Origin: Escherichia phage Sciku
Direction: 5' to 3' (one strand)
Length of the DNA: 43,130 bases
Sequence record: MK931439.1
The position numbers and the translations under genes are program-made. The notes beneath the pieces are model-generated. The model saw only the letters and a program-made list of their open reading frames with translations, was not told where the DNA came from and did not search any database. Below, in pieces: positions 5,509 to 42,902 of this stretch (its first letter is position 1; the number at the start of each line of letters is the position of its first letter).

Positions 5509-5572
5509 AGCGCCTGTGATTATTCCAGTTATTCCACTCAATTGTAAATGTTGGAATAAACTATTCGAATAG

Positions 5573-5601: not shown

Positions 5602-5642
5602 CCACCTGAGCTTGTGAAGTATGAACAAGCGACCGCGGCGCG
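5573..5642 (+). repeat. conserved about 70-bp promoter-leader block, copy 1
   Basis: near-identical to 37503-37572 at a constant offset of 31930; contains a 38-nt identical core CCTGAGCTTGTGAAGTATGAACAAGCGACCGCGGCGCG. Confidence 0.7.
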
Positions 5643-5781
5643 GGCAGGTAACGGAGCGGGACGTAAGTCCTGAGTGTAGTTACGCTGACGCGTTCGGAAG
5701 GGCCATACTCTATTGCTTGTGTAAAAAGTAACTGGTTTACTGAGATTACGCCGTTTCTATGTTTAAATGATAAGGACTAGC

Positions 5782-12857: not shown

Positions 12858-13984
12858 CCCAGCATCTCCGGTGAAATAGTTAAACGTGCGACCTCGCCGT
12901 ATTCGGCGCTATAAGTAATTACATTTGCACTGCGGCCTGACATCCACCCGCCGCGGGAGGCGTAGGCATCTTTAGCCGCCAGGGTGCGGTGTTGTTCAAC
13001 AATCATGTTACGGCTTTCTACAATCTTTTGGTGGTGCAGGTGACCTACGTGGGCGTAGCTGTAAACACTCTCGCCGAACGCTTTGCGGAACTTGGCAATC
13101 ATAACCGGTTCGATAATGTCGAATCGCGCCTTATGCCCGTGATGAAAGAACAGCGTCGTTTTGCCGTGTTGCACCATCTTGTAAACATCCGGCGACGTGT
13201 CGACAATCACTCGGCTGTCGTTTGAGTATAAAGTCGCGAACATTTCCGCCAGCCATACGGACCCTACAGGATCGTGATTTCCTTGCACGATAAGCAAGCG
13301 AACGGTTTTATGTTTAACCAGCGCCATATCTACAACACGGCGGACCATACGAATCATGTAGCGGACAAGTTTCTGGTAGCGAGTGTCCGCGTCCAACACA
13401 TGACGTGACTCAGGTGTAACGGCGTCCAGACTATCGAAGTGTACGAAGTCTCCTAGCAGATTAATAACCCCTGTTCCTGCATCCGGTGCTTTCTGAAACG
13501 CCGCATCGAACCATCGAGAGAACAGGTCTTCCGCAATCTTCATATCCCAGTCGTCGCCGCTCTCGTCGGCCCATGCCAGCATACCAAGATGAAAATCAGA
13601 CACGGTGTAAAGATTGAGTAGCTTGTCGTCGCGTTTGGCTCGAGTCGCTTTAACAGGAGCAACGGGCGTAATCTCTGACTTCATGCCTTCGATCACGGCT
13701 TTCATCAATTCAACCTGACGTTCGGCATCGGTGTCGGTCTTAACCCATTGCAACTTAGTGTTGCCGAACTCATCCACAAGTGACGACGTTCCTTTAATCT
13801 TGTAGCCGTCCGGCACAAGGTGGCTAACGTCGCGCCCGTGACCTACGCCTTTCTTCGCCAGCTTCGCTTTACGGATACGGATAACGCGGTCTGAGATTCC
13901 ATACTTACGTGCGATATCAATAATTTTTGTTCCGGCGTTCAATTCTTCCCGTAACTGTTCGTCGGTTATTTTCTTATGAGCCAT
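12854..13984 (-). CDS. HTH domain - calcineurin-like metallophosphoesterase fusion protein
   Basis: N-terminal HTH-like IIDIARKYGISDRVIRIRKAK; then metallophosphoesterase signature blocks SDFHLG, GDFVHFD, GNHD, HHGH, GHLHH; GAGGAA RBS. Confidence 0.7.
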   Translation of the reverse strand: MAHKKITDEQLREELNAGTKIIDIARKYGISDRVIRIRKAKLAKKGVGHGRDVSHLVPDGYKIKGTSSLVDEFGNTKLQWVKTDTDAERQVELMKAVIEGMKSEITPVAPVKATRAKRDDKLLNLYTVSDFHLGMLAWADESGDDWDMKIAEDLFSRWFDAAFQKAPDAGTGVINLLGDFVHFDSLDAVTPESRHVLDADTRYQKLVRYMIRMVRRVVDMALVKHKTVRLLIVQGNHDPVGSVWLAEMFATLYSNDSRVIVDTSPDVYKMVQHGKTTLFFHHGHKARFDIIEPVMIAKFRKAFGESVYSYAHVGHLHHQKIVESRNMIVEQHRTLAAKDAYASRGGWMSGRSANVITYSAEYGEVARLTISPEMLG

Positions 13985-14255: not shown

Positions 14256-14285
14256 AATAGTATCCTATTATGTTGGGGTGCGCAA
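14256..14285 (-). promoter_or_regulatory. sigma70-like promoter with AATAG-N4-CTATT operator (type B)
   Basis: minus strand: -35 TTGCGC (14285-14280), 17-nt spacer, -10 TACTAT (14262-14257); 26-bp block here is an exact inverted copy of 37811-37836. Confidence 0.5.
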
Positions 14286-24750: not shown

Positions 24751-24888
24751 CTACTCTTCGGATAACTTCTCCAGTACAAACGCCAGTTGCGCATTAGCGG
24801 CGTCTCTCTGTTGCCGTAGTCGTAGAACCTCTTCTTCGAGTTCCTCGATACGTTTTTGCAATGCCGGAATTGGGGCTATGATGTTCAT
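24751..24888 (-). CDS. small coiled-coil hypothetical protein
   Basis: 45 aa ORF whose ATG overlaps the helicase stop (ATGA); heptad-like IEELEEEVLRLRQQ. Confidence 0.3.
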   Translation of the reverse strand: MNIIAPIPALQKRIEELEEEVLRLRQQRDAANAQLAFVLEKLSEE

Positions 24889-27350
24889 TTCTTACCTCGT
24901 CTCTTCATGTAATTAAGCAATTCTTCCTGTACAGATTTCTTCTCGTCGGTGCGCGCGGCAACAACCTCATCCAGCGTGTCTTTAGCGACGATGTGATAGA
25001 GGAACACCGGGCGCTCGTGTCCAGCCTGTTTCTGACGAACAGGGCCTATGCGCTCGACAACCTGCAAATAGTGCTCGAGGTTCCATCCCTGACTTATAAA
25101 CGCCAGATGATGCCCTCCATCCTGTAAATTCAAACCATGGCCGGCTGACGCGGGATGAACACATAAGATTTCGATTTCACCACGGTTCCACGCTTCCATC
25201 TGCTTATTACCCTTAGCTCCTTTGGCAAACGCCTTAGCCTGCGGGAATCGCTTAAGTATGCGCTCCAGTTCGTGTTTAAACTGATAGGCCACCAGTAACG
25301 GCGCGCCCTGCAACTCCTCAACAATGGACTCCAGTGCGTCCAGTTTCGTGTCATGCACTTTCTCCCAGTCTTTCGTTGCTTCGCCATCTGGCCCTGATAC
25401 ATACACGGCACCGGACGCAATCTGGAGACACTTTGATGTCTTCGCTGCCGCGTTAGCGGCTTCAACTTCCCCGCTCTCGAGTTCCGCAAATAACTTCTCC
25501 TCCATATCGATGTACGCCTGACGCGCTTTCTTCGGCAGGTCTATTTCAACAGGAACGATAATCGGCGCTTCGCAACCGAACCACTCTGCAGCATCGATAG
25601 TGAGACTGATATCCTTCATCTTCTGATGAATCTCGGTATCCGCGCCCGGGCGAGCGTGATACTCACGCGCCATAGCCGATTTGCCTTTCTGTATCGAATT
25701 AAACCAGCGGTCGGTAAACGCCGTATACGAAGAACCAAGTCGCTCGCCTGCGTCTATAAACCAGTTCTGCCCCCACAAGTCTTTGAGGCCGTTTGGTGAC
25801 GGCGTACCGGTCAGGTTGATAAAACGCTTAACCTTACCAAACGCCACTTTACTAAGCGCCTTTGCTCGCTTGCTGCCACCAGAACGGCTGCGGAACGATT
25901 TAAGCTTCGTGCTCTCGTCGGCAACGATAACTGTGAAAGGCCAGTCGTCTTTGCCGTAGTAGTCAATCAGCCACTCGATAACTTCGTAGTTAGTGCACAC
26001 CACGTTAGCGTCGGACTCAAGCGCCGTGATGCGGCGCTTCTCCGAACCGGTCGCATCTACTACACGCAGGCACGGGAAACCCCAACGTGCCTGTTCCGCG
26101 GGCCACGTGCCAGACGCAACACGCAACGGGGCGAGGATTAACACGCGGTCGTCGTCATTAAGTTGCCCATTACGGAACAGGCGGTTGAGAACCCACAACG
26201 TTGAGCTTGTATTGTGCGTGACAGTGAAGTCCCCCAATAAAAACCTACTGTCACCGTCGATAGTGAAGCCGAAATAATCATCTACGCCGACCGGGGTTAT
26301 GGATTCTATACCAACGTTAAGCACGTTCTTATTAATATTACGCTTCGGTAAATTCTGGTGGCGTCCTCGCACGAAAGGTACCTCAGAAAAATCGCCAGAT
26401 ACCGACACACGGAAGTAGTCACCCCAAACATCAGTGTTTGCGCAACGCTTACGAGTTTTCTTCTTGTAAGCAGCAAAACCAAGAGAACGGCATAGATAGC
26501 AAAAATCATCAGCAAGTCGCTCGCTTACCGAAATCCAGTCAAAACCCGCTTTAGACAAATCGCAGTAACCATCACTATCCAGAAGCCCCGCCAGCAATTC
26601 TAACCGCTGTCGCCGGTCGCCGCATTTGTAACTATGCGGTATATGCTTATTGTTCAGGACACCCGCCGATTTCAGCGCGTGCGTAAACCCGTGCTTCTTA
26701 TGACCTGTGTTGCCGTAAGATATACTCCATGTAAGTCCTTCTTTTCGTATTTGCATCCCATTACGTGCTGCGTACGACTCAAGATAAGCCCTTATTTCCT
26801 TTTCGTTCTCTCCTGATGTTATGGCCCCCGACGACGAAGTACCGTCACCCAGCCATAACCCCATAAGGTACGGAGGCAATAAAGCCTCGTCCTGCTCTTT
26901 CCTTGTAAAATCGACAGGTACCCGCCAACCCTTAAGATACCCATTAGGTCCGGTTACATATTTCGGCAACTTAAGCCAGTCGCGGACGCTTATGTCGAAA
27001 ACGGTATTATCTGGCCATGAACCTTTTGCAATCCCTGTAGTAGTTCGCAGGGATAATATATGGCTTTCGTTGACCGTATACGACTCTCCTTTTCGCGGTT
27101 TAACCTCGTACATCATCTCCCGGCCTCTACCGAGAGACAGTACATTTCTAGGCGTTGAATCCGGCCCCATAAGCACGTCACCGACGATGACGTCTTCTAC
27201 TTTCTTGGTCGTACCGTCAAACATAATAACTTCCGTCCCGCGTTTCAGGCACTTGCCGCTGCCCATACTAGCCCAGATATTGCAACGTGGGTGCTGTAAC
27301 ATAAACGACGTCATTATTTTCTGGTATTCCCTGCGCCTAAATTTACTCAT
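24885..27350 (-). CDS. SNF2-family helicase precursor containing an intein
   Basis: motif I ASMGSGK|T interrupted after Lys33 by a 347-aa insert; C-terminal helicase region with GHGLNLQ; mature protein predicted 474 aa. Confidence 0.8.
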   Translation of the reverse strand: MSKFRRREYQKIMTSFMLQHPRCNIWASMGSGKCLKRGTEVIMFDGTTKKVEDVIVGDVLMGPDSTPRNVLSLGRGREMMYEVKPRKGESYTVNESHILSLRTTTGIAKGSWPDNTVFDISVRDWLKLPKYVTGPNGYLKGWRVPVDFTRKEQDEALLPPYLMGLWLGDGTSSSGAITSGENEKEIRAYLESYAARNGMQIRKEGLTWSISYGNTGHKKHGFTHALKSAGVLNNKHIPHSYKCGDRRQRLELLAGLLDSDGYCDLSKAGFDWISVSERLADDFCYLCRSLGFAAYKKKTRKRCANTDVWGDYFRVSVSGDFSEVPFVRGRHQNLPKRNINKNVLNVGIESITPVGVDDYFGFTIDGDSRFLLGDFTVTHNTSSTLWVLNRLFRNGQLNDDDRVLILAPLRVASGTWPAEQARWGFPCLRVVDATGSEKRRITALESDANVVCTNYEVIEWLIDYYGKDDWPFTVIVADESTKLKSFRSRSGGSKRAKALSKVAFGKVKRFINLTGTPSPNGLKDLWGQNWFIDAGERLGSSYTAFTDRWFNSIQKGKSAMAREYHARPGADTEIHQKMKDISLTIDAAEWFGCEAPIIVPVEIDLPKKARQAYIDMEEKLFAELESGEVEAANAAAKTSKCLQIASGAVYVSGPDGEATKDWEKVHDTKLDALESIVEELQGAPLLVAYQFKHELERILKRFPQAKAFAKGAKGNKQMEAWNRGEIEILCVHPASAGHGLNLQDGGHHLAFISQGWNLEHYLQVVERIGPVRQKQAGHERPVFLYHIVAKDTLDEVVAARTDEKKSVQEELLNYMKRRGKK
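26211..27251 (-). mobile_element. intein with LAGLIDADG homing-endonuclease domain
   Basis: begins with Cys (TGC at 27251-27249), ends His-Asn (26216-26211) before Thr +1; two LAGLIDADG motifs YLMGLWLGDGT and LLAGLLDSDGY; in frame, 1041 nt. Confidence 0.8.
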
Positions 27351-27538
27351 TTCAGCACCAGCACCAGCTCTTTACGCCCGAACGCCGTAACGTTACCTGT
27401 TACATCTTCAATAACCAGTTTACCGTTAGACTCGACGAACACCGTATCAACGGCAACAGGGCGACGGGTCTTAACGTTGAAAATCATATCGCCTGGTACG
27501 ATGTCACGTGCTGGTTTGCGGTCATATTCGTGTTTCAT
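27347..27538 (-). CDS. hypothetical protein
   Basis: 63 aa ORF whose stop overlaps the helicase ATG. Confidence 0.4.
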   Translation of the reverse strand: MKHEYDRKPARDIVPGDMIFNVKTRRPVAVDTVFVESNGKLVIEDVTGNVTAFGRKELVLVLK

Positions 27539-27568
27539 TTCTCAATTCCTTATATTGTTGGTGTAGGG

Positions 27569-27856
27569 CTAACTATAATAGTTCGCTATTAGGTCGTCAA
27601 CCTGTTTAAACGAACCAACGACAAAAACATTTGCACCACGTTTACGCATCCGCTCGTGCTCTCGTAGCTGGTGGGGGTCCGGCTTCGTGTTTTCATCTTT
27701 CTTAACCTCGACGAACCAGATGACGCTGCCGGGGAGGATTACCAGCAGGTCAGGGGCGCCCACTCTATTTTCGTACGACAATTTGCGTACGAGGCCCCCC
27801 AGGGCCTCGAATCGGTCTTTTGCGTATTTCTGAACAACTCCTTCTTTAGTCGCCAT
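27569..27856 (-). CDS. VRR-NUC domain nuclease
   Basis: 95 aa with PD-(D/E)xK-like core GAPDLLVILPG...FVEVKK typical of VRR-NUC. Confidence 0.6.
   Translation of the reverse strand: MATKEGVVQKYAKDRFEALGGLVRKLSYENRVGAPDLLVILPGSVIWFVEVKKDENTKPDPHQLREHERMRKRGANVFVVGSFKQVDDLIANYYS
27572..27600 (-). promoter_or_regulatory. sigma70-like promoter with AATAG-N4-CTATT operator (type A)
   Basis: minus strand: -35 TTGACG (27600-27595), 17-nt spacer, -10 TATAGT (27577-27572); palindrome AATAGttcgCTATT 27577-27590. Confidence 0.5.
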
Positions 27857-28337
27857 GGTTACAGAAATCTCCGTGTAGTGATTCTCTCGCCGCGCAGACT
27901 ACTTTGTACGCTTCCTCCTTTGTCGAAAAAGCACCGAAATATATGCGCTTCCCGTTCACGGTTATCCTTGCCCTAAATTTACCTCTTTCAGGTGATACCC
28001 CCTTTAAACATGAGGTGTTGTCACGCCTTACCCTTGCGTTTCTGGTATTCTCCCACCTGGTCGCTAACCGCAGGTTGCAAATCCGATTATCCGCACGGTC
28101 GCCGTTTATATGGTCAACCTCCTCCGGCGGCATATCACCGTACACCCACCACCAAGCCAATCGGTGTGCCGGATAGTGGACGTTTCTGAACACAACTTTC
28201 ATATACCCAAGGTCAGTGTAGTTATTTATAGCTTTCCCCGGAACAGACCGCGGACCACTTCGCTTAACCCATTTGAATACCCCAGTATCAGGGTCGTACG
28301 ACAGGAAATCTTTTATATCGTCACTTGGTGCTTTCAT
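27846..28337 (-). CDS. HNH homing endonuclease with AP2-like DNA-binding domain
   Basis: HNH core HRLAWWWVYGDMPPEEVDHINGDRADNRICNLRLATRWEN; C-terminal AP2-like GVSPERGKFRARITVNGKRIYFGAFSTKEEA; ATG 28337 with GAGGGG RBS. Confidence 0.75.
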   Translation of the reverse strand: MKAPSDDIKDFLSYDPDTGVFKWVKRSGPRSVPGKAINNYTDLGYMKVVFRNVHYPAHRLAWWWVYGDMPPEEVDHINGDRADNRICNLRLATRWENTRNARVRRDNTSCLKGVSPERGKFRARITVNGKRIYFGAFSTKEEAYKVVCAARESLHGDFCNHGD

Positions 28338-28419
28338 AATACGCACCCCTCACGTTTCGTATGCTCAATCCCGCAGCGCGGGCAGATTCGGCAGTCTTCT
28401 TCGTATAACCAGTAAATTT

Positions 28420-28551
28420 TCATTCCAGCACCCACATATAAATTGCGATGAACATGCCTAATACGGCAACCATCATGCCGTATTGGCCCTCGTGGCAGTA
28501 GACACCGGCGGCGAATCCTGCCAGTACCGCGATAATTAGTTTACTTAGCAT
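28420..28551 (-). CDS. small hydrophobic membrane protein
   Basis: 43 aa ORF MLSKLIIAVLAGFAAGVYCHEG...; start overlaps the polymerase stop. Confidence 0.3.
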   Translation of the reverse strand: MLSKLIIAVLAGFAAGVYCHEGQYGMMVAVLGMFIAIYMWVLE

Positions 28552-30712
28552 AACGCTTCATCTCCGCACCTTCCGCTACAAGAGGGAAGCCTTCTGCCCA
28601 CTCAGGCAGAGAACACATTAATTTTTCCAGTTCGCCCACCGTGTACTCAGATGTATCGGGGGTTTCGCAGATAATCTCATCGTGAACATGAAGTACAATT
28701 GGATAGCCGTTTGCTTCTACGTTCAGCAGGGCGTTAGCCAGCAAATCACGGCACAGCGCCTGAGTGCAGTTTTCCACGAGTTTACCGGAGTAGGTGTACT
28801 GGAAGCCCCACTGACGGGTTAACTGATTCTCTCCCTGGTACTTGATATGCACGTTAGTAGACACCTTCCCGTCTTCGTCTGTCTCTTTCGACACGCTCAA
28901 CCCGATGCCTGGATAGGACATAACGCGGCCAGACGGCAACGTCATGCGCAACCACCAACCGGCGACTTTGTTGCCGTTGTTGTCTGTATCTACGTTACGC
29001 GAAAACTTAACGCCCCGCGGCCCTGCGGTGAACTCTTTGCCTGGATTGCGGATAGCAGCCATAGCTGCGTCTTCAATATCTCGCCAGAATTGTACTATCG
29101 CTGGATTGGCCTCTCGGTACATGCGTTTCAGAGCGTCACATGTTCTCCATACTTTCTTATCAAGTATATATGATGGTCGGTCATCCTTTTCACCAGGACG
29201 TGGTGGTCGCTTGGCTTCCTGAATACGTGCCCACTCGTAACCGCGTGCAGTAGCAGCCCAAATATGGTCCGGGAAAGTTCCGTCTAAAGTGCGTGTCATA
29301 TCATTCAAATCAAGACCTAAGTTTTTAGCAAACGTGACGAAAGCACCGACACCACCCGCGTAGCCGAGGCCCAGAACCATTGCTTTGGCTATTTGTCTTT
29401 GGTCCTTTGTTACGTCGTCATAACTAACGTTGAACACGGTTGATGCGAGTTTCTTATACACATCAACCCCGTTTACAAATACTTCTATTAAATCGTCTTC
29501 ACCAGCAAGCCACGCAAGCCCGCGGCCCTCGACGTTAGAGTAATCAGCGACGACAAACTTGTGCCCTTCTTCTGGTATGATGCAGCTACGAACCGTCGAT
29601 GCCGTTAGCTTGGCTACGTCAAAACGGCGATGAGCACGGCCTTTAAGTAGCGCTGAAATACCTTTATCCAGTTCCTCATCATGGTAATACCCGCGAGCCA
29701 GGTTCTGTGGCTGGAAGCCTTTACCAGCAAATCGTAACGTACGCTTGGCCCCACCATACTGGATGCAACCCCGGCGGCGGTCGTCAGACGAGCGACCTAA
29801 CAGCAATGGGTTGTATTTCGTGGACGCCGTGGACGCGGCCCCGAGGCGCATTTCAATAATCGTACGCGCATCGTCCTGTAAATCATCATCCGCCAGCAGG
29901 TCATTCAGCGTCGACTTCTGTGCGTTGTGGATGCGGTGGGCGGGGGCGAGTTCACGCAGAATCGGCAGGAAGTCTTTACCGGTGAGTGAGCAGCCGTATT
30001 TGCGCTGGGCTTCTTCCTGCAACTGCGCCTTGTGCTTCTCTACGGCTTCAATCGCTGCTTCCGCCAGCGCAACATCAACCTTGAACCCACGGTCATTGAT
30101 TAACTGGTCCAGTTCCAGTACACGGTCTTCGAACTCAGAGTTACCCCACCGCGGCAGCTTATGGAATACTTCACGCATCGCGGTGATGTCGCTCACGGCG
30201 TACTTGATGAACAGCGCCCACTCGTCCGAGTGCGTTTCGGCGGTGTAGCGGCGGATTTTGTAGTTCTTCGGTGTCGGTTTAGAAAAACGCTTAATCAGCG
30301 CCTTGCCGCGTTTGTCTTTCGCGTTGTCTGCAGACACGCCCAGCACTTCACACAGCGCGTCAAGTGAACCCGGCAGCGCGTGACGAAATGCCCAAATCAT
30401 CGTATCAATGGTGTTGCTTACAGGAATATCAAAGCCCCAACAGTGCTTCATGATGAGCCTATCGAACATTGAGCCGTTGTGCCACACCATCTTAATGCGG
30501 CTGTTTGGCTTAGCCAGACGGCGTAACGCGCGGTGCAAATCTCCCGGCATGTCGCTGCCGTCGGTGCAATCCCATGCCTGTACAGGCTCGTCGTCAAAAG
30601 CATAGGTACAGATGAGCACTTCGGTGGTTGGGTGTTCGGCGTAAGCGTAGGAGCCAACTTTCTTTAAATCGGCCTCGGAGAATGTTTCAAAGTCTAAGAA
30701 CAGGTAACTCAT
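28541..30712 (-). CDS. family A DNA polymerase with 3'-5' exonuclease domain
   Basis: Exo I motif FLDFETFS at N-terminus; motif B KAMVLGLGYAGGVGAF; motif C VLHVHDEI. Confidence 0.85.
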   Translation of the reverse strand: MSYLFLDFETFSEADLKKVGSYAYAEHPTTEVLICTYAFDDEPVQAWDCTDGSDMPGDLHRALRRLAKPNSRIKMVWHNGSMFDRLIMKHCWGFDIPVSNTIDTMIWAFRHALPGSLDALCEVLGVSADNAKDKRGKALIKRFSKPTPKNYKIRRYTAETHSDEWALFIKYAVSDITAMREVFHKLPRWGNSEFEDRVLELDQLINDRGFKVDVALAEAAIEAVEKHKAQLQEEAQRKYGCSLTGKDFLPILRELAPAHRIHNAQKSTLNDLLADDDLQDDARTIIEMRLGAASTASTKYNPLLLGRSSDDRRRGCIQYGGAKRTLRFAGKGFQPQNLARGYYHDEELDKGISALLKGRAHRRFDVAKLTASTVRSCIIPEEGHKFVVADYSNVEGRGLAWLAGEDDLIEVFVNGVDVYKKLASTVFNVSYDDVTKDQRQIAKAMVLGLGYAGGVGAFVTFAKNLGLDLNDMTRTLDGTFPDHIWAATARGYEWARIQEAKRPPRPGEKDDRPSYILDKKVWRTCDALKRMYREANPAIVQFWRDIEDAAMAAIRNPGKEFTAGPRGVKFSRNVDTDNNGNKVAGWWLRMTLPSGRVMSYPGIGLSVSKETDEDGKVSTNVHIKYQGENQLTRQWGFQYTYSGKLVENCTQALCRDLLANALLNVEANGYPIVLHVHDEIICETPDTSEYTVGELEKLMCSLPEWAEGFPLVAEGAEMKRYAK

Positions 30713-30771
30713 TATTTTCGACCCTTAGTAAAAAGGCCCAATGAAGGGCCTTAGTTAAATCGATTCAGATA

Positions 30772-31398
30772 TTAGCGACGGCGACGTTCGCGGCGCGGTG
30801 CTGCATCTTCATCGTCGTCTTCCAGGTCATCGACACTTGCGGCGACTTTAGAACCACCGAACGCTTTACCTTCGCCAACATATTTAATTGCCAGAAGGTT
30901 AACACCGAGGACTTTGTATTTCTGGCTGAACCAGATTTCGACGCTTACGTTAGCAACGCAGCCGCTGTAAACCTGTTCACCTTCAATCTGTTCGCCGTCT
31001 ACGTTGAAGTCCTGTTCTACCTGAGTCTCACCTTTTTTAGAGGTTACAATCAGTGGCTGTTTCTGCGCCTTCGCTTTGAAGTAGAAGCCTTCCGGGAAAT
31101 CTTCAAACGGATTGTCGCGCTCGGCAATGTCTTTAATCGCGCATTTATCCATGTGCTTACCTTCGCCGTAGTTGGACTTCATCCATTTCTCGGCGGCGGC
31201 GGCACCTAATGCTTCTTCAACTACAGCATAAACAGCGTCGTATAGCGCGTCGATTTGAGCATGGTCGGACGGCAGGATAATCGTTGCGCTGTACTGGCCC
31301 TTAGTGATTGAGCCATCATCGTTTTCACGGTCTTTTTCGCGTTCGAATACGTTAACCCATGCAGTGTTTACTTTACGCAGATTTAATTTCAGTCCCAT
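30772..31398 (-). CDS. putative ssDNA-binding protein (DUF2815-like)
   Basis: 208 aa with acidic C-terminal tail DDLEDDDEDAAPRRERRRR; sits between polymerase and a nuclease-like gene. Confidence 0.45.
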   Translation of the reverse strand: MGLKLNLRKVNTAWVNVFEREKDRENDDGSITKGQYSATIILPSDHAQIDALYDAVYAVVEEALGAAAAEKWMKSNYGEGKHMDKCAIKDIAERDNPFEDFPEGFYFKAKAQKQPLIVTSKKGETQVEQDFNVDGEQIEGEQVYSGCVANVSVEIWFSQKYKVLGVNLLAIKYVGEGKAFGGSKVAASVDDLEDDDEDAAPRRERRRR

Positions 31399-31456
31399 CG
31401 TGATTTCTCGCTTTTAAGTTTCGTTTACTCCGGGAAGCTGCCCGGCCAGTGATTTA

Positions 31457-31485
31457 ACTATAATAGTTTGCTATTCAGGTGTCAA
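31457..31485 (-). promoter_or_regulatory. sigma70-like promoter with AATAG-N4-CTATT operator (type A)
   Basis: minus strand: -35 TTGACA (31485-31480), 17-nt spacer, -10 TATAGT (31462-31457); palindrome AATAGtttgCTATT 31462-31475. Confidence 0.55.
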
Positions 31486-31675
31486 CACTTTATTTACTAT
31501 CTGGGTTAATTACATGCCTTACATCAATCTTACCTTTGTTAACCATTCGGATAATTTTACCCATCTCGTCGTGCATTACCATATTAAATACGCGGCGTAT
31601 CGTTTTGTTTTTACCTAGCTTTGCCCCGTTTCGGTACTGTTCTACGTAGCTTTTTTTGCAATTCTTGAATCGTAC

Positions 31676-32917
31676 TCATTCTAAATCCTCCTCTGTTACA
31701 CGGTCCCACTCAGGCCGTTTATCGTCTGCCGCGGCGACGCATGGCGCTCCCGGCTTACGGGTAATGAAGTCTTTCAGTTCTTCTTCCGGGATAACTTTAA
31801 CAGCTTCTGTCGGCGTCATGAGCACTTCTTTAGTCAGCTTGTCGCCGTAGAGTTCTGCTACTTTCTCTGCATCTTTCCACGCACGATTACCAGGACGACC
31901 CTCGACCAACTTGTACCCTGGCACTTTCTTACCGGAATGTAACGCAGCTGCCATCGCTTTCTCAACCTTGTCGATGTGCTGTCGTAACAGCGGTAACTTC
32001 TCATACTCAGCGACGAGTTGCTCAGGTGTCAGTTCAAGCGCAAAGTCGTCCTCCAGTTCTTCTGCCAGTACCGCGTTAACCGTCTTCGTACGTGCGGCGC
32101 ACTGTTCAGAGAACCGACACCACTGACAACCATCGACCGACGGCTTGAAGTCCGACGCTTTCAGGTTCTTCTTGCCACGGGAATAGGCATCTAACGTTAA
32201 CAGCGCACGTTTCTGCGCGAACTTAGCGAACAGTTCCAGACCTTCAACCGAGATGTCCCACTCTGACGCACCACCAGCATACGGCTGGAAGATGACAAGA
32301 CGAACGGTTGTTATGCTATAACGTCTCTTGAGTCGGCGATAAACACCGAGAGCGTAAAGCATAAGCTGTTTGTTTTCTTTCGCTTCGACACGATGTCGCC
32401 CGGTTTTCAGGTCGCCGATGATAAGCATGTACTCGTCGGTGTTGGCCCGTTCCTGAACGGCGACAAGGTCAGCGGTCCCGAACGTCTCAACGCCTTCATA
32501 GCCTGGATGCAATACCTCAGTAAGATTTACGCGCATTTCCAGCTTGGCGTAAGTCGCTACGTCGATAATCGCTTTGCAGTAATCGGTGTACTTGCGCACC
32601 TGCTCAATCATATCCGCCGTAATTAGTACCGCGCCTTTCATTGGGCTGATTAGTGCCTTAATCTGGCCTCTACCCTCATCCAGCACATAAGCGCCGACTT
32701 CGCGCTCTAACGGCAACGCAGTCCCGCGGATATAGGCGTTGAGATGGACCTCTGCTATGGTGTGGCACGCGGTCCCTGTAACGGCGGCTTTACCAGACGT
32801 GTTAGGAATATCTTTTTCACAGGCCAGTGACGCACTGCACGTCAGCCACTTCTTAGCACCCGACGGTGACAATATGGCGTGCACATCATTATTGCCCCCG
32901 CGTTCCTTTAAAATCAT
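31676..32917 (-). CDS. PD-(D/E)xK-type nuclease (DUF2800-like)
   Basis: ATG 32917 overlaps upstream stop (ATGA) with GGAGA RBS; N-terminal ILSPSGAKKWLTC and Cys-rich C-terminal cluster as in Cas4/RecB-like nucleases. Confidence 0.55.
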   Translation of the reverse strand: MILKERGGNNDVHAILSPSGAKKWLTCSASLACEKDIPNTSGKAAVTGTACHTIAEVHLNAYIRGTALPLEREVGAYVLDEGRGQIKALISPMKGAVLITADMIEQVRKYTDYCKAIIDVATYAKLEMRVNLTEVLHPGYEGVETFGTADLVAVQERANTDEYMLIIGDLKTGRHRVEAKENKQLMLYALGVYRRLKRRYSITTVRLVIFQPYAGGASEWDISVEGLELFAKFAQKRALLTLDAYSRGKKNLKASDFKPSVDGCQWCRFSEQCAARTKTVNAVLAEELEDDFALELTPEQLVAEYEKLPLLRQHIDKVEKAMAAALHSGKKVPGYKLVEGRPGNRAWKDAEKVAELYGDKLTKEVLMTPTEAVKVIPEEELKDFITRKPGAPCVAAADDKRPEWDRVTEEDLE

Positions 32918-33186
32918 ACCCTGTTCTCCCACTGGTCAATTAAATGTCTCGTCTTATGGTCGCAATGTAAGGCCCATCCATACATCGACTCGAAGACATA
33001 AAAGTCAGGTTTGGCGAATGTCGTGCGCTTAATCTGCGACACGTGACGGCCTGTATCTTTGGGCCGTGGTGCTTTGCCTAAGTACGCCATTTCTTCCATC
33101 TGATGCGCACCGGATGGCGCACGCAATAGCCACAACGCCTCGGTGTTATCGCGCCTGTCTACGGCTCGGTAGAGTTGGTAAATCAT
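32914..33186 (-). CDS. hypothetical protein
   Basis: 90 aa minus-strand ORF translationally coupled to the downstream nuclease gene. Confidence 0.4.
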   Translation of the reverse strand: MIYQLYRAVDRRDNTEALWLLRAPSGAHQMEEMAYLGKAPRPKDTGRHVSQIKRTTFAKPDFYVFESMYGWALHCDHKTRHLIDQWENRV

Positions 33187-33229
33187 AATTCCGACCCTCA
33201 GTTAAAGCGGCCCGGAGGCCGCAGGATAA

Positions 33230-33721
33230 TTATTCTTCTTCGAAATACTTGTTCTTGATTGCCGTCAGGCGCTCCAGGTATTCAACCAGGTCTTCGTCTT
33301 TAATCGCGGCAATCTTCATCTTCTTACCGGTGAACTCTTCCAGCAGTTCATCGGAGTCATCGCACGCGGCATCGCTCGGGCCTTCGTTAATCGCACCGTC
33401 GATAGCCTGAATCTGGTCGCGCAGAGACTGGTAATCGACTTCTTCTTCCGGTTCTGGCGTCGGCTCCTCTACTTTAGCTTTACGCGGCTTGCGTTTCGGC
33501 TTCTCTTCTTCTTCCGGTTTAGTGTCGACTACGTCTTCACCTTCAACCGGGATTTCTTTTGTTTCTTCTTTAATACTTTCAGAGAACTGCTCAATTTTAT
33601 GCGCGGCTACTGCGGCGGCCTCTTTGGCAGTAGTTGGCGCGAACTGTTTTGCACTGTTCGCAGCAATCAGTTCATGGGCAACTACGAAACGCTCCAGTAA
33701 TTTCAGAAATTGTTCTAACAT
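33230..33721 (-). CDS. acidic hypothetical protein
   Basis: 163 aa, Glu/Asp-rich with a central lysine-rich patch; GGAGAGAAA RBS. Confidence 0.45.
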   Translation of the reverse strand: MLEQFLKLLERFVVAHELIAANSAKQFAPTTAKEAAAVAAHKIEQFSESIKEETKEIPVEGEDVVDTKPEEEEKPKRKPRKAKVEEPTPEPEEEVDYQSLRDQIQAIDGAINEGPSDAACDDSDELLEEFTGKKMKIAAIKDEDLVEYLERLTAIKNKYFEEE

Positions 33722-33736
33722 TTGTTTCTCTCCTGT

Positions 33737-33886
33737 TTATTTATACTTAACGGTTTTGACTAACTGGCCTGTTGCTTTGTCGAAGAAGCCAACACGATTG
33801 TTGCTTACGCTATATCGTGCGGTTTCTTTAGTTCCAAATGCGATATCAAGGCCTAACAGAATCTTTGCTTTGCGGTTGTTAACCAT
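33737..33886 (-). CDS. small hypothetical protein
   Basis: 49 aa ORF, first gene downstream of promoter 33917-33945; AGAGGAGAGA RBS. Confidence 0.35.
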   Translation of the reverse strand: MVNNRKAKILLGLDIAFGTKETARYSVSNNRVGFFDKATGQLVKTVKYK

Positions 33887-33916
33887 TGTGTCTCTCCTCT
33901 CGTTTGGTATGGGCTA

Positions 33917-33945
33917 ACTATAATAGCGAACTATTCACTTGTCAA
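33917..33945 (-). promoter_or_regulatory. sigma70-like promoter with AATAG-N4-CTATT operator (type A)
   Basis: minus strand: -35 TTGACA (33945-33940), 17-nt spacer, -10 TATAGT (33922-33917); palindrome AATAGcgaaCTATT 33922-33935. Confidence 0.55.
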
Positions 33946-34009
33946 TGGGTTTTTCTAAAATAATTAATATGGTACTATTCACGCATCAACTAACTAAGGA
34001 GTAACTGAC

Positions 34010-34225
34010 ATGCAACCATCTGAACTAGGCATCCGTGTAGAACAACGCCGTAAAGAACTCGGCATCTCCCAGCGCCGTCTGGCTGTCCTGACTGGCGTTT
34101 CCCAGGGCGCGATTAACCAACTGGCACTTGGGGTAACTCAGGACGTCCGCCCGGCGACGCTGTTTAAACTGGCGGAAGTGCTGGAGATAGACGCCAAGTG
34201 GCTGGCGTTAGGTGAAGGGGCTTAA
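34010..34225 (+). CDS. Cro/CI-type helix-turn-helix transcriptional regulator
   Basis: 71 aa; HTH ISQRRLAVLTGVSQGAINQLALG typical of XRE/Cro family; AAGGAG RBS; only plus-strand gene inside the minus-strand block. Confidence 0.7.
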   Translation: MQPSELGIRVEQRRKELGISQRRLAVLTGVSQGAINQLALGVTQDVRPATLFKLAEVLEIDAKWLALGEGA

Positions 34226-34256
34226 TGCCCCTTTCTTTTTATAGCAACTTATCGAG

Positions 34257-34553
34257 CTATTCCAAATTCTTAATCGTGTGTTGCACGTTCAGGTACTGAA
34301 TCCACGCAAAAAGCCATACGCTTAACGGAAAACTAACCACAGCTGCCGTTCTGAAAACAATGTGGACGGTACACGCTACAATTTCCTTTACCGTCATATC
34401 CAGAACGTGGCGCAATTCTGCAACTTCCTCTAACGCTAGCTTGCAAGCAGGCCACCATTGGTGTGCTACACAAGAAACACATGTCAGGTACGACGGGCGG
34501 TATCCAGCCCTCACTGCTTTAAACGGGTTATCTATAAAATCGTAGATATTCAT
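34257..34553 (-). CDS. hypothetical protein
   Basis: 98 aa ORF with Cys-rich N-half and hydrophobic C-terminus; start overlaps primase stop. Confidence 0.4.
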   Translation of the reverse strand: MNIYDFIDNPFKAVRAGYRPSYLTCVSCVAHQWWPACKLALEEVAELRHVLDMTVKEIVACTVHIVFRTAAVVSFPLSVWLFAWIQYLNVQHTIKNLE

Positions 34554-36811
34554 TCCAAATCCTCTTCTGTCACTATCAGCATCTCATTCGGCTCGTATAT
34601 TGTCTTCGGAATCTTGTTATCGTTTATGCCCCACGGCAGCCGATATTGCTTAGGTATAGGCCTGTTGTTATTATCCAGCCCAGAGACGATAACCCCGGCC
34701 TCGTGCATCTCCTCCAGTTTCTTTCGAAGGTCGTTATTAGCGTTAATCGGTACACCATAACTATCTTCTTTCACCGCTTTGACGATAGCGGACATAGAAA
34801 ACCCTCGCTTGTCGTCGCCCTGCTCCTGCAATTTACCTAATGCGTAAATAACCGTAGCTTCTTTGGTACCCAGTTTCTTGAACTGGCCTACCTTTTCTTT
34901 AACGGCTTCCTTCTGTTCGTCGGTCATACCTTCTACTTTCTTCACGAAGACAGAGAAGGCGTTAAAGTTAACAAAGACATCGATGTGCGGATTTCCCGCG
35001 TCAAAATCTCGTACATCGTCACTGCTATACCCTTCCGGAAGCACCATGAAGTTGTGAGTTGGTTCTTTCTTTTCCGGCGGCTCCGCTATCTGAATCTTCT
35101 GTATTACGAATCCTCTGGCTTTCTGCCGTTCTCCGTTTCGGTTCTTTATGTGATACAGGTTTATCTCTAAGTTATTGTCGTTGTCTGGTTTATGCAGGAA
35201 CATCCCGTTATCGATGGAGTTGTGAAAGTCGCTCCCACCCTTCGGCATCATGCCGTTTTCAGACGGTACGGTTTCGTCGATGTTTTTAGTCGGGTGCACC
35301 ATAGCGCCTACCGCAGCGTTAAGCGTCGACGCTATTTCGTTAAGCGCCTGCGCCGCTTCTTTCATCGACCTGTTGTCGTTCTCGTCGAAGCCTGGTATGC
35401 AAGTTTGTAGGGTATCAAACGTAACCTTTACAATTTTCTCTTCACCGGCGACACGGCGCATCATTCTTACCGCCTGGCGGCGCCATGCTTCATCAAGTAA
35501 ATTACACCCATCGGCAACACAATCGATAATGTGCAAGCGGTCCAGGCTATCCCCGAGGGCAATCTGCAAAGACTTTTTATGTCGCTCGAACGACTGTGCG
35601 CCTTCACCGGCGAAAATGAACGCATGTCCTTCTGCAACCTCTGCCCCACCGAACGCATATCTTTTTTCGGCGGCAATAGCGGCGTCAATCGCCATACTAA
35701 ATGTCGACTTACCAGTGTGGGACTTTGCGCAAATGTAAAACGATTCGTTAGTCTGCATAAGGCCGTCTACGACGGAGTAAGCAGGTTCTTTTTCAACTTC
35801 CGGCTCGTCTTCGAGGTCTTCCAGAGTGCAAGTTACAGGCTCTTCATTCTCTGTGCGGTGTAATTCCTCAATCTCTTCGTCCGGTAAATCAGGCAGAGCC
35901 GCACGAATGCTGTTAATACTGATAGGTTGCTTGTCTACGTTAAGCTCGTCCGGAAGACCGCACATACGCAGAGCCAAATGTTGTCGGCGGTTAAGCTCGG
36001 TGCAAGCGCCGTTGTTTGTGTGCTGGCACACGAAGCGCACTTCTTTACCATCAAGCATAATGCTGGTAGAGCCTTTGCCGGTGTGCAGGTGTTCGTTAGG
36101 GCAAGGCACTTCGTACCCGCGACCGGAAGATAAAGCGTCAAGGCCAAGCTCCGCTTCGCAGAAATGCGCTATATCCGCGTTAAGCCCATGCTCATCGGCA
36201 GCAAGGGTCTTAGCTTCACGTTTACGCAACCCCATTTCTTCGGCTTTCTTGATGTACCGCTCGGCACGGATAACACGCCCTTCTGTAACCGTTATCTTCG
36301 ACTCTTTATGCGGCAGGTAGATAAGGCGGTTGCCATCTTCTGTGCAGTGGTCACGCAGCGCTTCGTCTATCTCTAACTCTGCACAAATGGCGCGTTGTAC
36401 CATCCACGCATCGTTAGAGTTAAACGGCGTGCGTGCAGGTACAAGAACGCGAAAGGCGTAATCCCCGTTTTTACACGCGTGCTGATGCGACGCCGTTGTG
36501 TGCAGAATGTTGAAGAACGGCGCGTTCTTGAATTTGCGCGTCAGGTCGCGGTACTGAGCGCGGTTGAGATGGTCAAAGTCGAACTTAACCACACTGTCTT
36601 CCAGAATCGCGTTCTTACGGCGACCGCCAACCGGCGCAATAGCTTTCTGCTTAATCTTGGCCGCGTCGTACTCTTCCTTAGTCCATGACGGGTCTACGGA
36701 CAGACGCTTCGATGTATCGCAGACATACTCTACAAACTGCTCCAGTGGCATTTCACGGGCTACCGGGTTTTTATCGAATGTGTTACGCAGCGTTGCAAAA
36801 ACAATATTCAT
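34550..36811 (-). CDS. DNA primase / helicase
   Basis: 753 aa; Cys/His cluster CPNEHLHTGKGSTSIMLDGKEVRFVCQH; Walker A AKSHTGKST in the central domain. Confidence 0.7.
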   Translation of the reverse strand: MNIVFATLRNTFDKNPVAREMPLEQFVEYVCDTSKRLSVDPSWTKEEYDAAKIKQKAIAPVGGRRKNAILEDSVVKFDFDHLNRAQYRDLTRKFKNAPFFNILHTTASHQHACKNGDYAFRVLVPARTPFNSNDAWMVQRAICAELEIDEALRDHCTEDGNRLIYLPHKESKITVTEGRVIRAERYIKKAEEMGLRKREAKTLAADEHGLNADIAHFCEAELGLDALSSGRGYEVPCPNEHLHTGKGSTSIMLDGKEVRFVCQHTNNGACTELNRRQHLALRMCGLPDELNVDKQPISINSIRAALPDLPDEEIEELHRTENEEPVTCTLEDLEDEPEVEKEPAYSVVDGLMQTNESFYICAKSHTGKSTFSMAIDAAIAAEKRYAFGGAEVAEGHAFIFAGEGAQSFERHKKSLQIALGDSLDRLHIIDCVADGCNLLDEAWRRQAVRMMRRVAGEEKIVKVTFDTLQTCIPGFDENDNRSMKEAAQALNEIASTLNAAVGAMVHPTKNIDETVPSENGMMPKGGSDFHNSIDNGMFLHKPDNDNNLEINLYHIKNRNGERQKARGFVIQKIQIAEPPEKKEPTHNFMVLPEGYSSDDVRDFDAGNPHIDVFVNFNAFSVFVKKVEGMTDEQKEAVKEKVGQFKKLGTKEATVIYALGKLQEQGDDKRGFSMSAIVKAVKEDSYGVPINANNDLRKKLEEMHEAGVIVSGLDNNNRPIPKQYRLPWGINDNKIPKTIYEPNEMLIVTEEDLE

Positions 36812-37003
36812 TTCTTTTTCTCCGCACGTTCTAAGGCTTCCAGCATACGGCGCATTGCGCGTTCATCTTTACCGGTGCGAAGAAGTCTGCGCCGTGTTTC
36901 TGGCGGCGTAGCTGTGGAACTATTAATTTCGCCATTGTATAATCCTTGTGCTTACTTTGATGATTTGTGCTTCGGCCCCGACGTCCTAGCGTTGGGGTTT
37001 CTT

Positions 37004-37216
37004 TTATTTATCGCCTGCAAACCACGCGTGCGCAGAATCATAGAAACGACATTTACTTAATACCTCGATTGGCATCTTAATAATGCGCGTCGGTTCCGAC
37101 AAATGATTAGGCTTACATATTTCTGCATAGAATCCGCTGTCAGTAATTTCTGACGCAAACTTAAACCAGTATTTAACTTTACCGTCTTCAAAGTAACAAC
37201 CCATACGCCCAATCAT
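37004..37216 (-). CDS. hypothetical protein
   Basis: 70 aa ORF overlapping (ATGA) the stop of the upstream HTH gene. Confidence 0.4.
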   Translation of the reverse strand: MIGRMGCYFEDGKVKYWFKFASEITDSGFYAEICKPNHLSEPTRIIKMPIEVLSKCRFYDSAHAWFAGDK

Positions 37217-37395
37217 TTCACGTTCTCCTTAATCCATGCTTCAACTTTATTACGGTCAAATGTACCCGGTAAACGGCGGCCCATTACTTTAATACAGCAG
37301 TCAGGGAATTTACCACTGCGCAGCCAGTTATTAATTGTCTGACGTGTCACACCGATACGTTCTGCTACTTCATTCTGGGTCATGTAATGTTGCAT
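37213..37395 (-). CDS. small HTH DNA-binding protein
   Basis: 60 aa from ATG 37395 with AGGAGA RBS; HTH-like QNEVAERIGVTRQTINNWL; first gene of the leftward block. Confidence 0.55.
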   Translation of the reverse strand: MQHYMTQNEVAERIGVTRQTINNWLRSGKFPDCCIKVMGRRLPGTFDRNKVEAWIKENVK

Positions 37396-37426
37396 TTTTA
37401 TATCTCCTGTTTGTTTGGTGAAGCTG

Positions 37427-37455
37427 AGTATAGGATAGCGGGAATGTAAAAGCAA
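37427..37455 (-). promoter_or_regulatory. sigma70-like promoter for the leftward replication block
   Basis: minus strand: -35 TTGCTT (37455-37450), 17-nt spacer, -10 TATACT (37432-37427). Confidence 0.4.
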
Positions 37456-37502
37456 CCAAAACGCCACACAAAGTTACTAAGATACAAAAGATGCTTCAGG
37501 TA

Positions 37503-37531
37503 TTGACTTTTACTAAGAAATATGGTAAGCT
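37503..37531 (+). promoter_or_regulatory. sigma70-like promoter (copy 2 of duplicated promoter-leader unit)
   Basis: TTGACT (37503-37508), 17-nt spacer, TAAGCT (37526-37531); same architecture as 5573-5601. Confidence 0.5.
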
Positions 37532-37572
37532 CAGCCTGAGCTTGTGAAGTATGAACAAGCGACCGCGGCGCG
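37503..37572 (+). repeat. conserved about 70-bp promoter-leader block, copy 2
   Basis: near-identical to 5573-5642 with the same 38-nt core; weaker similarity continues for about 70 nt. Confidence 0.7.
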
Positions 37573-37717
37573 CGGCAGGCGAAACGAGCACGTGTAGCGT
37601 GTGGAGTGAGGCTCGCTAGCGCGTTTGGGAGGCCCCAAGTCTATTGTAATTCCAGCCTAAGTAGCTAAGTTACTGATTTGCCGTAGGTTAGAACCGCCAG
37701 CTCACTCACTCACTCTT

Positions 37718-37750
37718 GGTGCCTTCGGCACCACGTTCGTTTCGTTTCGC
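37718..37750 (+). terminator. terminator-like hairpin closing promoter-leader unit 2
   Basis: GGTGCC-TTCG-GGCACC hairpin followed by ACGTTCGTTTCGTTTCG; preceded by a (CTCA)x3 repeat. Confidence 0.4.
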
Positions 37751-37800
37751 TCGCTACCCCCCTTAAACGAAAGAATCACAACGGCAACGTAACTAATCTC

Positions 37801-37829
37801 TTGCACACCCCAACATAATAGGATACTAT
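37801..37829 (+). promoter_or_regulatory. sigma70-like promoter with AATAG-N4-CTATT operator (type B)
   Basis: -35 TTGCAC (37801-37806), 17-nt spacer, -10 TACTAT (37824-37829); palindrome AATAGgataCTATT 37817-37830. Confidence 0.5.
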
Positions 37830-37863
37830 TCACTTATCGAAACGAGACAGAGGAGTGAGGGCT

Positions 37864-38733: not shown

Positions 38734-38762
38734 TTGCACGCTGGGGAAGAATAGGATACTAT
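38734..38762 (+). promoter_or_regulatory. sigma70-like promoter with AATAG-N4-CTATT operator (type B)
   Basis: -35 TTGCAC (38734-38739), 17-nt spacer, -10 TACTAT (38757-38762); palindrome AATAGgataCTATT 38750-38763. Confidence 0.5.
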
Positions 38763-38885
38763 TCATTTACACAAACGAGAGGAGAGGCAGAATATGGTTA
38801 CTTTGATGATTATGGAGTTCGAAAACAGCGCTGCAACTTACCGCGACATGTTCAACGAAACGATTAGCTAAGCAGGAGAAATAAG

Positions 38886-41463: not shown

Positions 41464-41485
41464 ATCTATTTTCTGTAATGACTAG

Positions 41486-41514
41486 TTGACTATTATTCTG
41501 ACACCAATTATATT
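41486..41514 (+). promoter_or_regulatory. sigma70-like promoter
   Basis: TTGACT (41486-41491), 17-nt spacer, TATATT (41509-41514). Confidence 0.45.
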
Positions 41515-42641: not shown

Positions 42642-42902
42642 GTGGACGACGAGGAATTTCTTAGGATGATTACCAGCATTCCGAACCTGATTAAAGAATA
42701 CGGCACGATGGCGGAGACATGCCGACAAACCGGCATCAATGAAATGACGATTCGCAAGTACAGCAAAGACGTAGACTGCGAGCGCCATGTAATTTATAAC
42801 AACCGCCTGATGACGCACGTCAGGACAAGCCCGGTGTTATTCACACGCCGTGGTATCACGAAGACTGAGCAACGTATCGCACGAGAGGAGGGTGATGTAT
42901 GA
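42642..42902 (+). CDS. small hypothetical protein with possible HTH
   Basis: 86 aa; segment AETCRQTGINEMTIRKYS is HTH-like; start uncertain (GTG at 42642 or ATG at 42666). Confidence 0.35.
   Translation: MDDEEFLRMITSIPNLIKEYGTMAETCRQTGINEMTIRKYSKDVDCERHVIYNNRLMTHVRTSPVLFTRRGITKTEQRIAREEGDV

Follow-up and report, generated by a model that had tools for sequence, protein, structure and literature searches.

A recurrent AATAG-N4-CTATT palindrome in the promoters of Escherichia phage Sciku and its possible recognition by a Cro-like protein

This analysis concerns a 14-bp palindrome, AATAG-N4-CTATT, that recurs in promoters of Escherichia phage Sciku (MK931439.1), whose sequence of 43,130 nucleotides was analysed over its full length and is called the window below. 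The window shares 99.9% identity with Escherichia phage Shashou (MK931440.1; Kagunavirus, Guernseyvirinae), which is recorded as a 44-kb siphovirus genome. The plus strand holds the structural genes (13-24720), the minus strand a block for replication and recombination (24751-37395), and small early genes and lysis genes are found on the plus strand from 37.8 kb onward. No integrase, CI-type repressor or RNA polymerase is found among the genome annotations, and Kagunavirus phages have been described as lytic (fBC-Eco01, PMC9825357; Golestan, PMC7203180). Three helix-turn-helix proteins are encoded, according to a Pfam scan:

34010-34225, plus strand: gene for a Cro-like XRE/HTH_3 protein of 71 amino acids (Pfam HTH_3 PF01381, E=5.6e-12, 46 bits versus a cutoff of 23)
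37213-37395, minus strand: gene for an HTH_17 (excisionase/MerR-like) protein of 60 amino acids (Pfam), the first gene of a primase-helicase operon whose promoter is free of the palindrome
42642-42902, plus strand: NinH-like gene (PF06322, just below the curated cutoff)

Palindromes within sigma-70-type promoters

An earlier note on this DNA had described three minus-strand promoters carrying the palindrome, at 27572-27600, 31457-31485 and 33917-33945. Their coordinates, 17-nt spacers and -10 hexamer TATAGT are all right, but the left half of the palindrome, which had been said to overlap the -10, has only one base in common with that hexamer, and the palindrome fills the spacer. These sites also proved to be a subset. 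A motif scan of the whole window added four more exact promoter copies and two conserved promoter copies with one mismatch. Eight exact matches were found against 0.03 expected, a number reached by none of 100 shuffles, and allowing one mismatch gave 11 matches against 1.26 expected. AATAG is the commonest arm among the 5-N4-5 palindromes of the genome. Six of the eight exact sites have their centres in non-coding DNA, which makes up 5.7% of the genome (binomial P about 9e-7); a seventh, at 27577, falls within the last codons of a gene, yet is inside a promoter. Seven of the eight are in sigma-70-type promoters, and the only isolated copy in a coding region is that at 21426. A chance origin of the palindrome is excluded.

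All promoters considered here were predicted from sigma-70-type hexamers. Relative to the -35 and -10, the palindrome takes three registers: in the spacer (class A, centred at about -18.5 and spanning about -25 to -12), over the -10 (class B, centred at about -12.5) and over the -35 (class C, centred at about -33.5). At least nine promoters carry it, seven with exact copies and two with conserved one-mismatch copies (33966 and 41481), one of these being the promoter of the cro-like gene. The sites are as follows, with the two copies nearest the cro-like gene designated O1 and O2.

33922-33935, unstranded: O1, exact copy (AATAGCGAACTATT) in the spacer of a leftward class A promoter (TTGACA 33945-33940, TATAGT 33922-33917) for gp049, gp048, gp047 and the exonuclease gene on the minus strand
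33966-33979, plus strand: O2, one mismatch (AATATGGTACTATT), covering the -10 (TACTAT 33973-33978) of the putative cro promoter
31462-31475, unstranded: exact copy in the spacer of a minus-strand class A promoter (TTGACA 31485-31480, TATAGT 31462-31457) of the SSB and DNA polymerase operon
27577-27590, unstranded: exact copy in the spacer of a minus-strand class A promoter (TTGACG 27600-27595, TATAGT 27577-27572) for gp038 and the intein-containing helicase gene; the site overlaps the 3' end of the VRR-NUC gene
37817-37830, plus strand: exact copy, class B (TTGCAC 37801-37806, 17-nt spacer, TACTAT 37824-37829), for gp057-gp061
38750-38763, plus strand: exact copy, class B (TTGCAC 38734-38739, 17-nt spacer, TACTAT 38757-38762), for a rightward operon from about 38794
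14256-14269, minus strand: exact copy, class B (TTGCGC 14285-14280, 17-nt spacer, TACTAT 14262-14257), for the Imm and phosphatase operon
3905-3918, minus strand: exact copy, class B (TTGCAG 3934-3929, 17-nt spacer, TACTAT 3911-3906), for the sliding-clamp gene
41481-41494, plus strand: one mismatch (ACTAGTTGACTATT), class C, the centre holding the -35 (TTGACT 41486-41491; 17-nt spacer, -10 TATATT 41509-41514), for an operon with the NinH-like gene; the promoter lies 3' of a terminator
21426-21439, unstranded: exact copy without promoter context, inside the tail-tip (J-like) gene
5568-5581, plus strand: one mismatch (AATAGTTGACTTTT), over the -35 of a TTGACT-17-TAAGCT promoter

The three class A promoters are the best three sigma-70 matches between 24.7 and 43.1 kb, with hexamers that agree with the consensus at 10-11 of 12 positions. 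Class B promoters read TTGCAC, TTGCGC or TTGCAG, a 17-nt spacer and TACTAT, with the -10 hexamer inside the right half of the palindrome, and within each promoter class the flanking 5' untranslated sequence is common to the members. The putative cro promoter has class B geometry and a weak -35 (TTTTCT, 33951-33956), and its O2 is 44 bp from the operator at 33922. The last two copies listed are of a different kind. That at 21426 has no counterpart in matching context in the full Kagunavirus genomes L003 and L004, and is probably incidental. The copy at 5568 is doubtful as an operator because the duplicated twin of its promoter, at 37505, has no palindrome.

Because the palindrome is found in three registers, it is a module apart from the RNA polymerase signals. 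All three registers overlap the core promoter and therefore, by standard promoter logic, steric repression would be expected. A common repressor-type regulator, of which the earlier note had taken the recurring palindrome to be the signature, is still the best reading of its twofold symmetry, near-invariant half-sites and overlap with core promoters. We consider it very likely that some phage-encoded repressor uses the palindrome as its operator. A role as RNA was rejected, since the copies fold only into weak hairpins (-0.4 to -1.8 kcal/mol) and are positioned upstream of the predicted transcription starts. An Rfam scan of the whole window gave no match.

Two of the class B sites, 3905-3918 and 14256-14269, can also be read on the plus strand, where the dyad is followed by a -10-like hexamer (TATATT and TATGTT respectively) with no good -35. 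These hexamers face late genes (capsid morphogenesis and tail chaperone). Both regions are divergent intergenic regions and may be bidirectional control regions.

Conservation of the palindrome in related phages

The palindrome was followed through four full GenBank genomes and 60 loci around Cro homologues from IMG/VR. At orthologous promoters, AATAG-N4-CTATT is present in every Kagunavirus locus (Cro at least 93% identical), in one intermediate locus (77%) and in all Jerseyvirus loci (46-48%), the Jerseyvirus version being a longer, 16-bp palindrome (TAATAG-N4-CTATTA). It ranks top among 5-N4-5 palindromes in almost all of about 40 Kagunavirus loci and is tied top in a few short ones, and it is among the top palindromes of this form in most Jerseyvirus loci.

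The pattern of variation was examined at the SSB promoters, with 31 unique orthologues from Kagunavirus and Jerseyvirus anchored on the downstream 5' untranslated region, the palindrome itself being unused for anchoring. Variation was counted element by element, since indels blurred the column-wise information content. The left half AATAG was found in 27 of the 31 promoters and the right half CTATT in 30, while the central N4 has nine variants and the linker to the -35 has ten, some differing in length. Across Kagunavirus sites, 21 distinct N4 sequences occur (42 with both orientations counted).

Beside the cro-like gene, O1 is kept in every Kagunavirus control region, and the one-mismatch left half of O2, AATAT, is kept in all Kagunavirus loci, an equivalent O2 being present in the Jersey, Cornell and phiEap-2 phages. 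The imperfect half of the class C site is likewise kept, as ACTAG..CTATT in Kagunavirus loci (with two single-base exceptions in the right half) and as AATAG..CTAGT in Jerseyvirus (with one exception).

No exact AATAG-N4-CTATT was found in Cornellvirus-like phages. Their orthologous promoters carry instead, with promoter positions unchanged, a 14-bp 5-N4-5 element, ATTA(C/G)-N4-(C/G)TA(A/T)T, of which one copy is perfect (ATTACTAACGTAAT), and the half-sites change coherently across promoters. In SenTO17 this consensus has 5 strand matches where 0.63 would be expected, and in another locus it has 4 (0.15 expected); these shuffle-based figures are optimistic, since the consensus was derived post hoc. 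In the Sciku window it has a single match, which is chance level. The motif emerged only from the reading of orthologous promoters. Enumeration of exact palindromes in SenTO17 returned TAAC-N6-GTTA, TTAA-N8-TTAA and GAATAA-N-TTATTC, the first two of which are almost wholly coding and look like noise. A comparison of the cro-proximal operator between six Cornellvirus control regions shows that half-sites, TATAC-N4-(G/C)TAAT, and register are retained while the flanks are replaced, and that only the N4 and the innermost base differ. A fourth lineage, represented by Enterobacter phage phiEap-2, has about ten non-coding sites of the type AATA(G/C/T)-N4-(C/G)TATT, several of them within recognisable promoters.

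Candidate binding proteins

The dyads persist with lineage-specific half-sites, also in lineages that have no HTH_17 gene, which argues that the binder is a protein common to all four lineages and diverged between them. A Cro homologue is present in all four and is diverged in Cornellvirus and phiEap-2, both of which are without HTH_17. In each lineage, two operators immediately adjoin the cro gene: its own promoter contains O2, and the replication promoter that diverges from it contains O1. This linkage holds although the lineages differ in the adjacent primase-helicase module, which has been inverted or exchanged. Judged from sequence, the Cro homologue would be the only canonical sequence-specific helix-turn-helix protein that fits all four lineages. 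Among the three candidate binders named in the earlier note, comparative genomics thus favours the Cro-like protein and speaks against the HTH_17 and NinH-like proteins.

The best solved homologue of the Cro-like protein is phage 434 Cro (1zug/2cro/3cro; phmmer E=7.7e-6, residues 6-68 of 71). An AlphaFold model from the single sequence is a five-helix bundle (pLDDT 79.5), for which Foldseek gave TM values of 0.72-0.78 to 2cro/3cro, with an identity to 434 Cro of about 37-40% over the fold alignment, and also matches to HipB, SinR, C-proteins and P22 c2. 434 Cro, HipB, SinR and the C-proteins are dimeric binders of palindromic sites, and the operators of phage 434 are 14 bp long, with conserved outer bases and a variable centre. 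In 434 Cro, helix 3 begins with a Gln that contacts the outermost operator adenine. Both the first Gln of helix 3 and the outermost operator A are conserved in all lineages here, and by analogy the same contact may be made by the Cro-like protein. Within Kagunavirus, helix 3 (VSQGAINQLALG) is invariant save for one G-to-S change in the locus L032, and the operator is likewise invariant. We therefore favour, as the probable binder, the 71-residue 434-Cro-like XRE protein encoded at 34010-34225, which would act as a dimeric helix-turn-helix repressor.

Several observations weigh against this assignment. The Cro proteins of Kagunavirus and Jerseyvirus are only 46% identical and have four differences in helix 3 (SQGAINQL versus SQSLITHL), yet the 10-bp core is common to both, and the Jerseyvirus helix 3 is nearer to that of Cornellvirus (TQSAISHL), whose half-site differs. 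The residues of Cro helix 3 could not be related to the half-site bases by any simple recognition code. HTH_17 is present exactly where the motif has its AATAG version. AT-rich promoters inflate loose patterns. Finally, the time course available for K1B4 is too coarse to resolve the timing of the operator-bearing promoters: this RNA-seq data set, the sole one published for a Kagunavirus, was sampled from 5 to 120 min and calls four genes early, with no per-promoter information.

The HTH_17 protein was favoured at first for its perfect co-occurrence with the motif, and it could bind the palindrome either as a repressor or as an activator of the operator-bearing promoters. Its homologues are almost confined to Kagunavirus and Jerseyvirus, the lineages with the exact AATAG motif, and are 82-84% identical between the two, a parallel to the invariance of the core. 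The Pfam model HTH_3 also gives a score for the helix-turn-helix of this protein, and the only annotated early gene in the K1B4 RNA-seq is an 'HTH domain' gene, matched to the HTH_17 homologue by gene order. This candidate was demoted by the operator-like dyads in lineages that lack it and by variation in its helix 3. In Cornellvirus and phiEap-2, HTH_17 is absent, yet 14-bp 5-N4-5 elements stand at equivalent promoter positions, and a Pfam scan of the small early open reading frames of SenTO17 found the XRE protein only and no HTH_17. Within Kagunavirus, the recognition helix has three variants (TRQTINNW, TRRTLNNW and STMTLNRW) while the operator is unchanged. In none of its variants does the promoter of the HTH_17 gene itself (TTGCTT 37455-37450, 17-nt spacer, TATACT 37432-37427) contain the palindrome, and the protein has no significant solved homologue. 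Small excisionase/MerR-like HTH_17 proteins usually bind asymmetric or direct-repeat sites. On balance, HTH_17 is an unlikely binder.

Perhaps both proteins use the one palindrome. In Kagunavirus and Jerseyvirus a two-protein temporal switch could time the early-to-late transition of a strictly virulent phage; HTH_17 might, for example, occupy or activate the promoters early and Cro shut them off afterwards, with Cornellvirus and phiEap-2 being Cro-only systems with a re-specified half-site. We give such a switch only a small chance of being right.

Other conceivable binders are the NinH-like protein, some small phage protein not recognised as a regulator, and a transcription factor of the host. 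The NinH-like gene is found in Kagunavirus, Jerseyvirus and Cornellvirus, and there are many small early open reading frames without a known fold. However, identity of the NinH-like protein is about equal (62-66%) in the Jerseyvirus and Cornellvirus genomes compared, despite their different half-sites, and its gene lies a long way from every operator pair. A host factor is made unlikely by the fact that Jerseyvirus and Cornellvirus differ in motif on a common host, Salmonella, while Kagunavirus, on E. coli, and Jerseyvirus have one motif in common; we know of no E. coli regulator with an AATAG-N4-CTATT consensus. Taken together, these other factors are improbable as the binder.

A further explanation dispenses with a dedicated regulator, so that the palindrome would be part of a promoter cassette spread by duplication and read by RNA polymerase only. 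This is the direction taken by the published work, in which PHIRE returned seven 'phage promoters' in fBC-Eco01 (consensus tgAATAGTa-ccTATTat-T) and seven in Golestan, and the 5' untranslated flanks common within each promoter class are consistent with common descent. Recognition by a phage RNA polymerase was rejected, since no polymerase gene is annotated and the motif is found in three registers of sigma-70-type promoters. In the spacer, where sigma-70 makes no base-specific contacts, the half-sites are nonetheless conserved while the N4 and the linker drift. A cassette also leaves the dyad symmetry unexplained, and does not account for the coherent change of the Cornellvirus half-sites. We think it doubtful that polymerase alone reads the element.

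Least probable by far is a loading site for a Q/AlpA-type antiterminator or a MerR-type spacer operator that activates transcription: lambda QBE and the AlpA binding element of P. aeruginosa do share with the class A element a place between -35 and -10, but AlpA is a monomer on a 6-bp asymmetric element and requires an N-terminal segment, by which a ring is formed within the RNA exit channel (PMC9371919), and antitermination of this kind was rejected here on the 14-bp dyad, its spacer position in class A only (it is over the -10 or -35 in classes B and C) and the lack of an exit-channel domain in candidate proteins of 60-71 amino acids that consist of a helix-turn-helix only. As for activation, no MerR family was above the curated cutoff in Pfam, the class A hexamers are already at 10-11 of 12 consensus positions, and the spacers are 17 bp, which is optimal. 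A typical MerR promoter has a spacer of 19-20 bp.

If the Cro-like protein is the binder, regulation might proceed as follows. Upon infection, host sigma-70 RNA polymerase would fire the near-consensus early and replication promoters and the cro promoter, and Cro would accumulate, its promoter having a weak -35 and an imperfect operator. The protein would first fill the seven perfect operators and, to judge from their position, exclude polymerase, so that the replication, recombination, accessory and early operons would be turned down. Later, Cro would fill the weaker O2 and the class C site, and with O2 over the -10 of cro this would give negative autoregulation at higher Cro. Promoters free of operators would be spared. 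These are P_HTH17 (TTGCTT-17-TATACT, 37455-37427), which serves the primase-helicase operon, both copies of the duplicated promoter TTGACT-17-TAAGCT (at 5573 and 37505), and a TGTACA-18-TATAAT promoter before the terminase genes. Such a division between operator-bearing early and replication promoters and operator-free, late-facing ones is the split predicted by a shut-off repressor. The identity of the binder, the sign of regulation and the timing are all points that we infer from the sequence.

Related systems and other features near the promoters

The Cro-like protein resembles 434 Cro as a single-domain five-helix XRE protein of 71 amino acids in both cases. The sites resemble 434 OR/OL in being 14-bp dyads with conserved outer bases and a variable centre, in overlapping core promoters, including the regulator's own control region, and in differing in their match to the consensus; lambda and P22 Cro are comparable by analogy. 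The features expected of a 434-Cro-type regulator are thus present in the prediction: an HTH_3 domain, a modelled five-helix fold, the operator geometry, and promoter overlap that extends to the predicted cro promoter. Unlike 434, Sciku is a virulent phage with no CI partner, integrase or tripartite OR, and it has at least nine operators dispersed genome-wide in three registers rather than two clustered operator regions, with the half-site AATAG in place of ACAA. A lambdoid bistable immunity switch was rejected, as no CI or integrase is annotated and the control region has two operators only.

The fold of the Cro-like model also matches that of the C-proteins (which act at C-boxes), HipB and SinR. 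These are small dimeric XRE proteins with palindromes that overlap their own promoters, and they autoregulate. The C-proteins serve one or two promoters of a single operon, with activation also possible, whereas a genome-wide phage regulon is proposed here. In the telomere phages PY54 and N15, a Cro-type lytic repressor acts at a palindromic operator (PMC4488713); these phages are temperate and have a single Cro operator in the immunity region, unlike the dispersed sites of Sciku. Compared with known Cro systems, what is distinctive here is the virulent lifestyle, the presence of at least nine promoters in three registers and the drift of the half-site between genera.

The same repeat has been published under another name. 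In the fBC-Eco01 paper (PMC9825357), the seven copies found by PHIRE are ascribed to a phage RNA polymerase, and the main text of the Golestan paper (PMC7203180) gives no consensus for its seven PHIRE promoters. Neither paper mentions the dyad symmetry, the three registers or the Cro-like gene. No description of an operator, regulator or transcription programme for Guernseyvirinae was found in the literature, the 2015 Jerseyvirinae description (Arch Virol) not being covered.

Guernseyvirinae (Kagunavirus, Jerseyvirus and Cornellvirus) are widely isolated and have been proposed for phage therapy and food biocontrol. If a Cro-type regulon is present, the label 'phage-polymerase promoter' would be a mislabelling, and a map of at least nine regulated promoters, together with at least four operator-free candidate promoters, would be available. 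It would also explain the presence of a repressor-annotated gene in a virulent phage, which bears on safety annotation, the gene being no evidence of lysogeny. The subfamily would then offer a natural series of XRE proteins with shifted half-sites (AATAG, ATTAS and AATAN) for studies of the recognition code and for orthogonal repressor/promoter parts.

Several other features were observed near these promoters. Just downstream of the -10 of the SSB promoter, the 5' untranslated region contains a hairpin (CACTGGCCGGGCAGCTTCCCGGAGTAAAC, 31419-31447, minus strand) with the stem CCGGG/CCCGG. Kagunavirus and Jerseyvirus keep this hairpin, Cornellvirus and phiEap-2 have it with small changes, and its loop differs in length. 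It may stabilise the 5' end of the SSB and DNA polymerase mRNA or serve as a translational operator there.

The operator-free promoter TTGACT-17-TAAGCT, which has a TG-extended -10, is part of a direct repeat on the plus strand (5573-5648 and 37503-37579; 91% identity over 78 nt) that also includes a leader (CCTGAGCTTGTGAAGTATGAACAAGCGACCGCGGCGCGGGCAGG) of some 70 nt, for which two hairpins are predicted. The first copy precedes the operon of spanin, scaffold and capsid, and the second is in the 460 bp that separate HTH_17 from gp057. About two dozen of the Kagunavirus loci were seen to carry the leader, one variant having CCGTG..CACGG for CCGCG..CGCGG, a compensatory change in hairpin 2. It could be the leader of a late promoter, a put-like antitermination RNA or a small RNA, and gp007 and gp056, the small annotated coding sequences that overlap it, may be spurious. 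Just upstream of the 5573 promoter (5520-5574), three copies of GGAATAA/TTATTCC occur within 40 bp, and after them a 16-bp palindrome (AACTATTCGAATAGTT, 5559-5574) contains the operator half-sites in inverted order. Repeats of the GGAATAA type are also found around the spanin genes of SenTO17 and in phiEap-2 at a possibly equivalent site; those at 5520-5574 may be the site of a late activator.

The gap that holds the second leader copy (37396-37860) comprises 460 bp without convincing genes between divergent promoters. It has tandem repeats (GAAAC three times, GAGT three to four times) and a terminator-like hairpin at 37717-37733; the RNA fold of 37536-37745 was no better than that of shuffles (z=-1.1), and Rfam returned nothing for it. 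In the IMG/VR locus L022, the contig end (about 13320-13400) carries CTGTCTCTTATACACATCTCCGAGCCCACGAGAC, which we take to be a Nextera adapter and an assembly artefact. The helicase gene (24885-27350, minus strand) downstream of the 27600-27572 promoter has an annotated intein with a homing endonuclease.

Relative to Shashou, the Sciku window has 36 substitutions, two 1-nt indels and a deletion of about 1 kb (about 1,020 bp) at the following position:

Sciku about 38842-38850, corresponding to MK931440.1 38849-39868: deletion in Sciku, by which parts of gp062 to gp065 are missing

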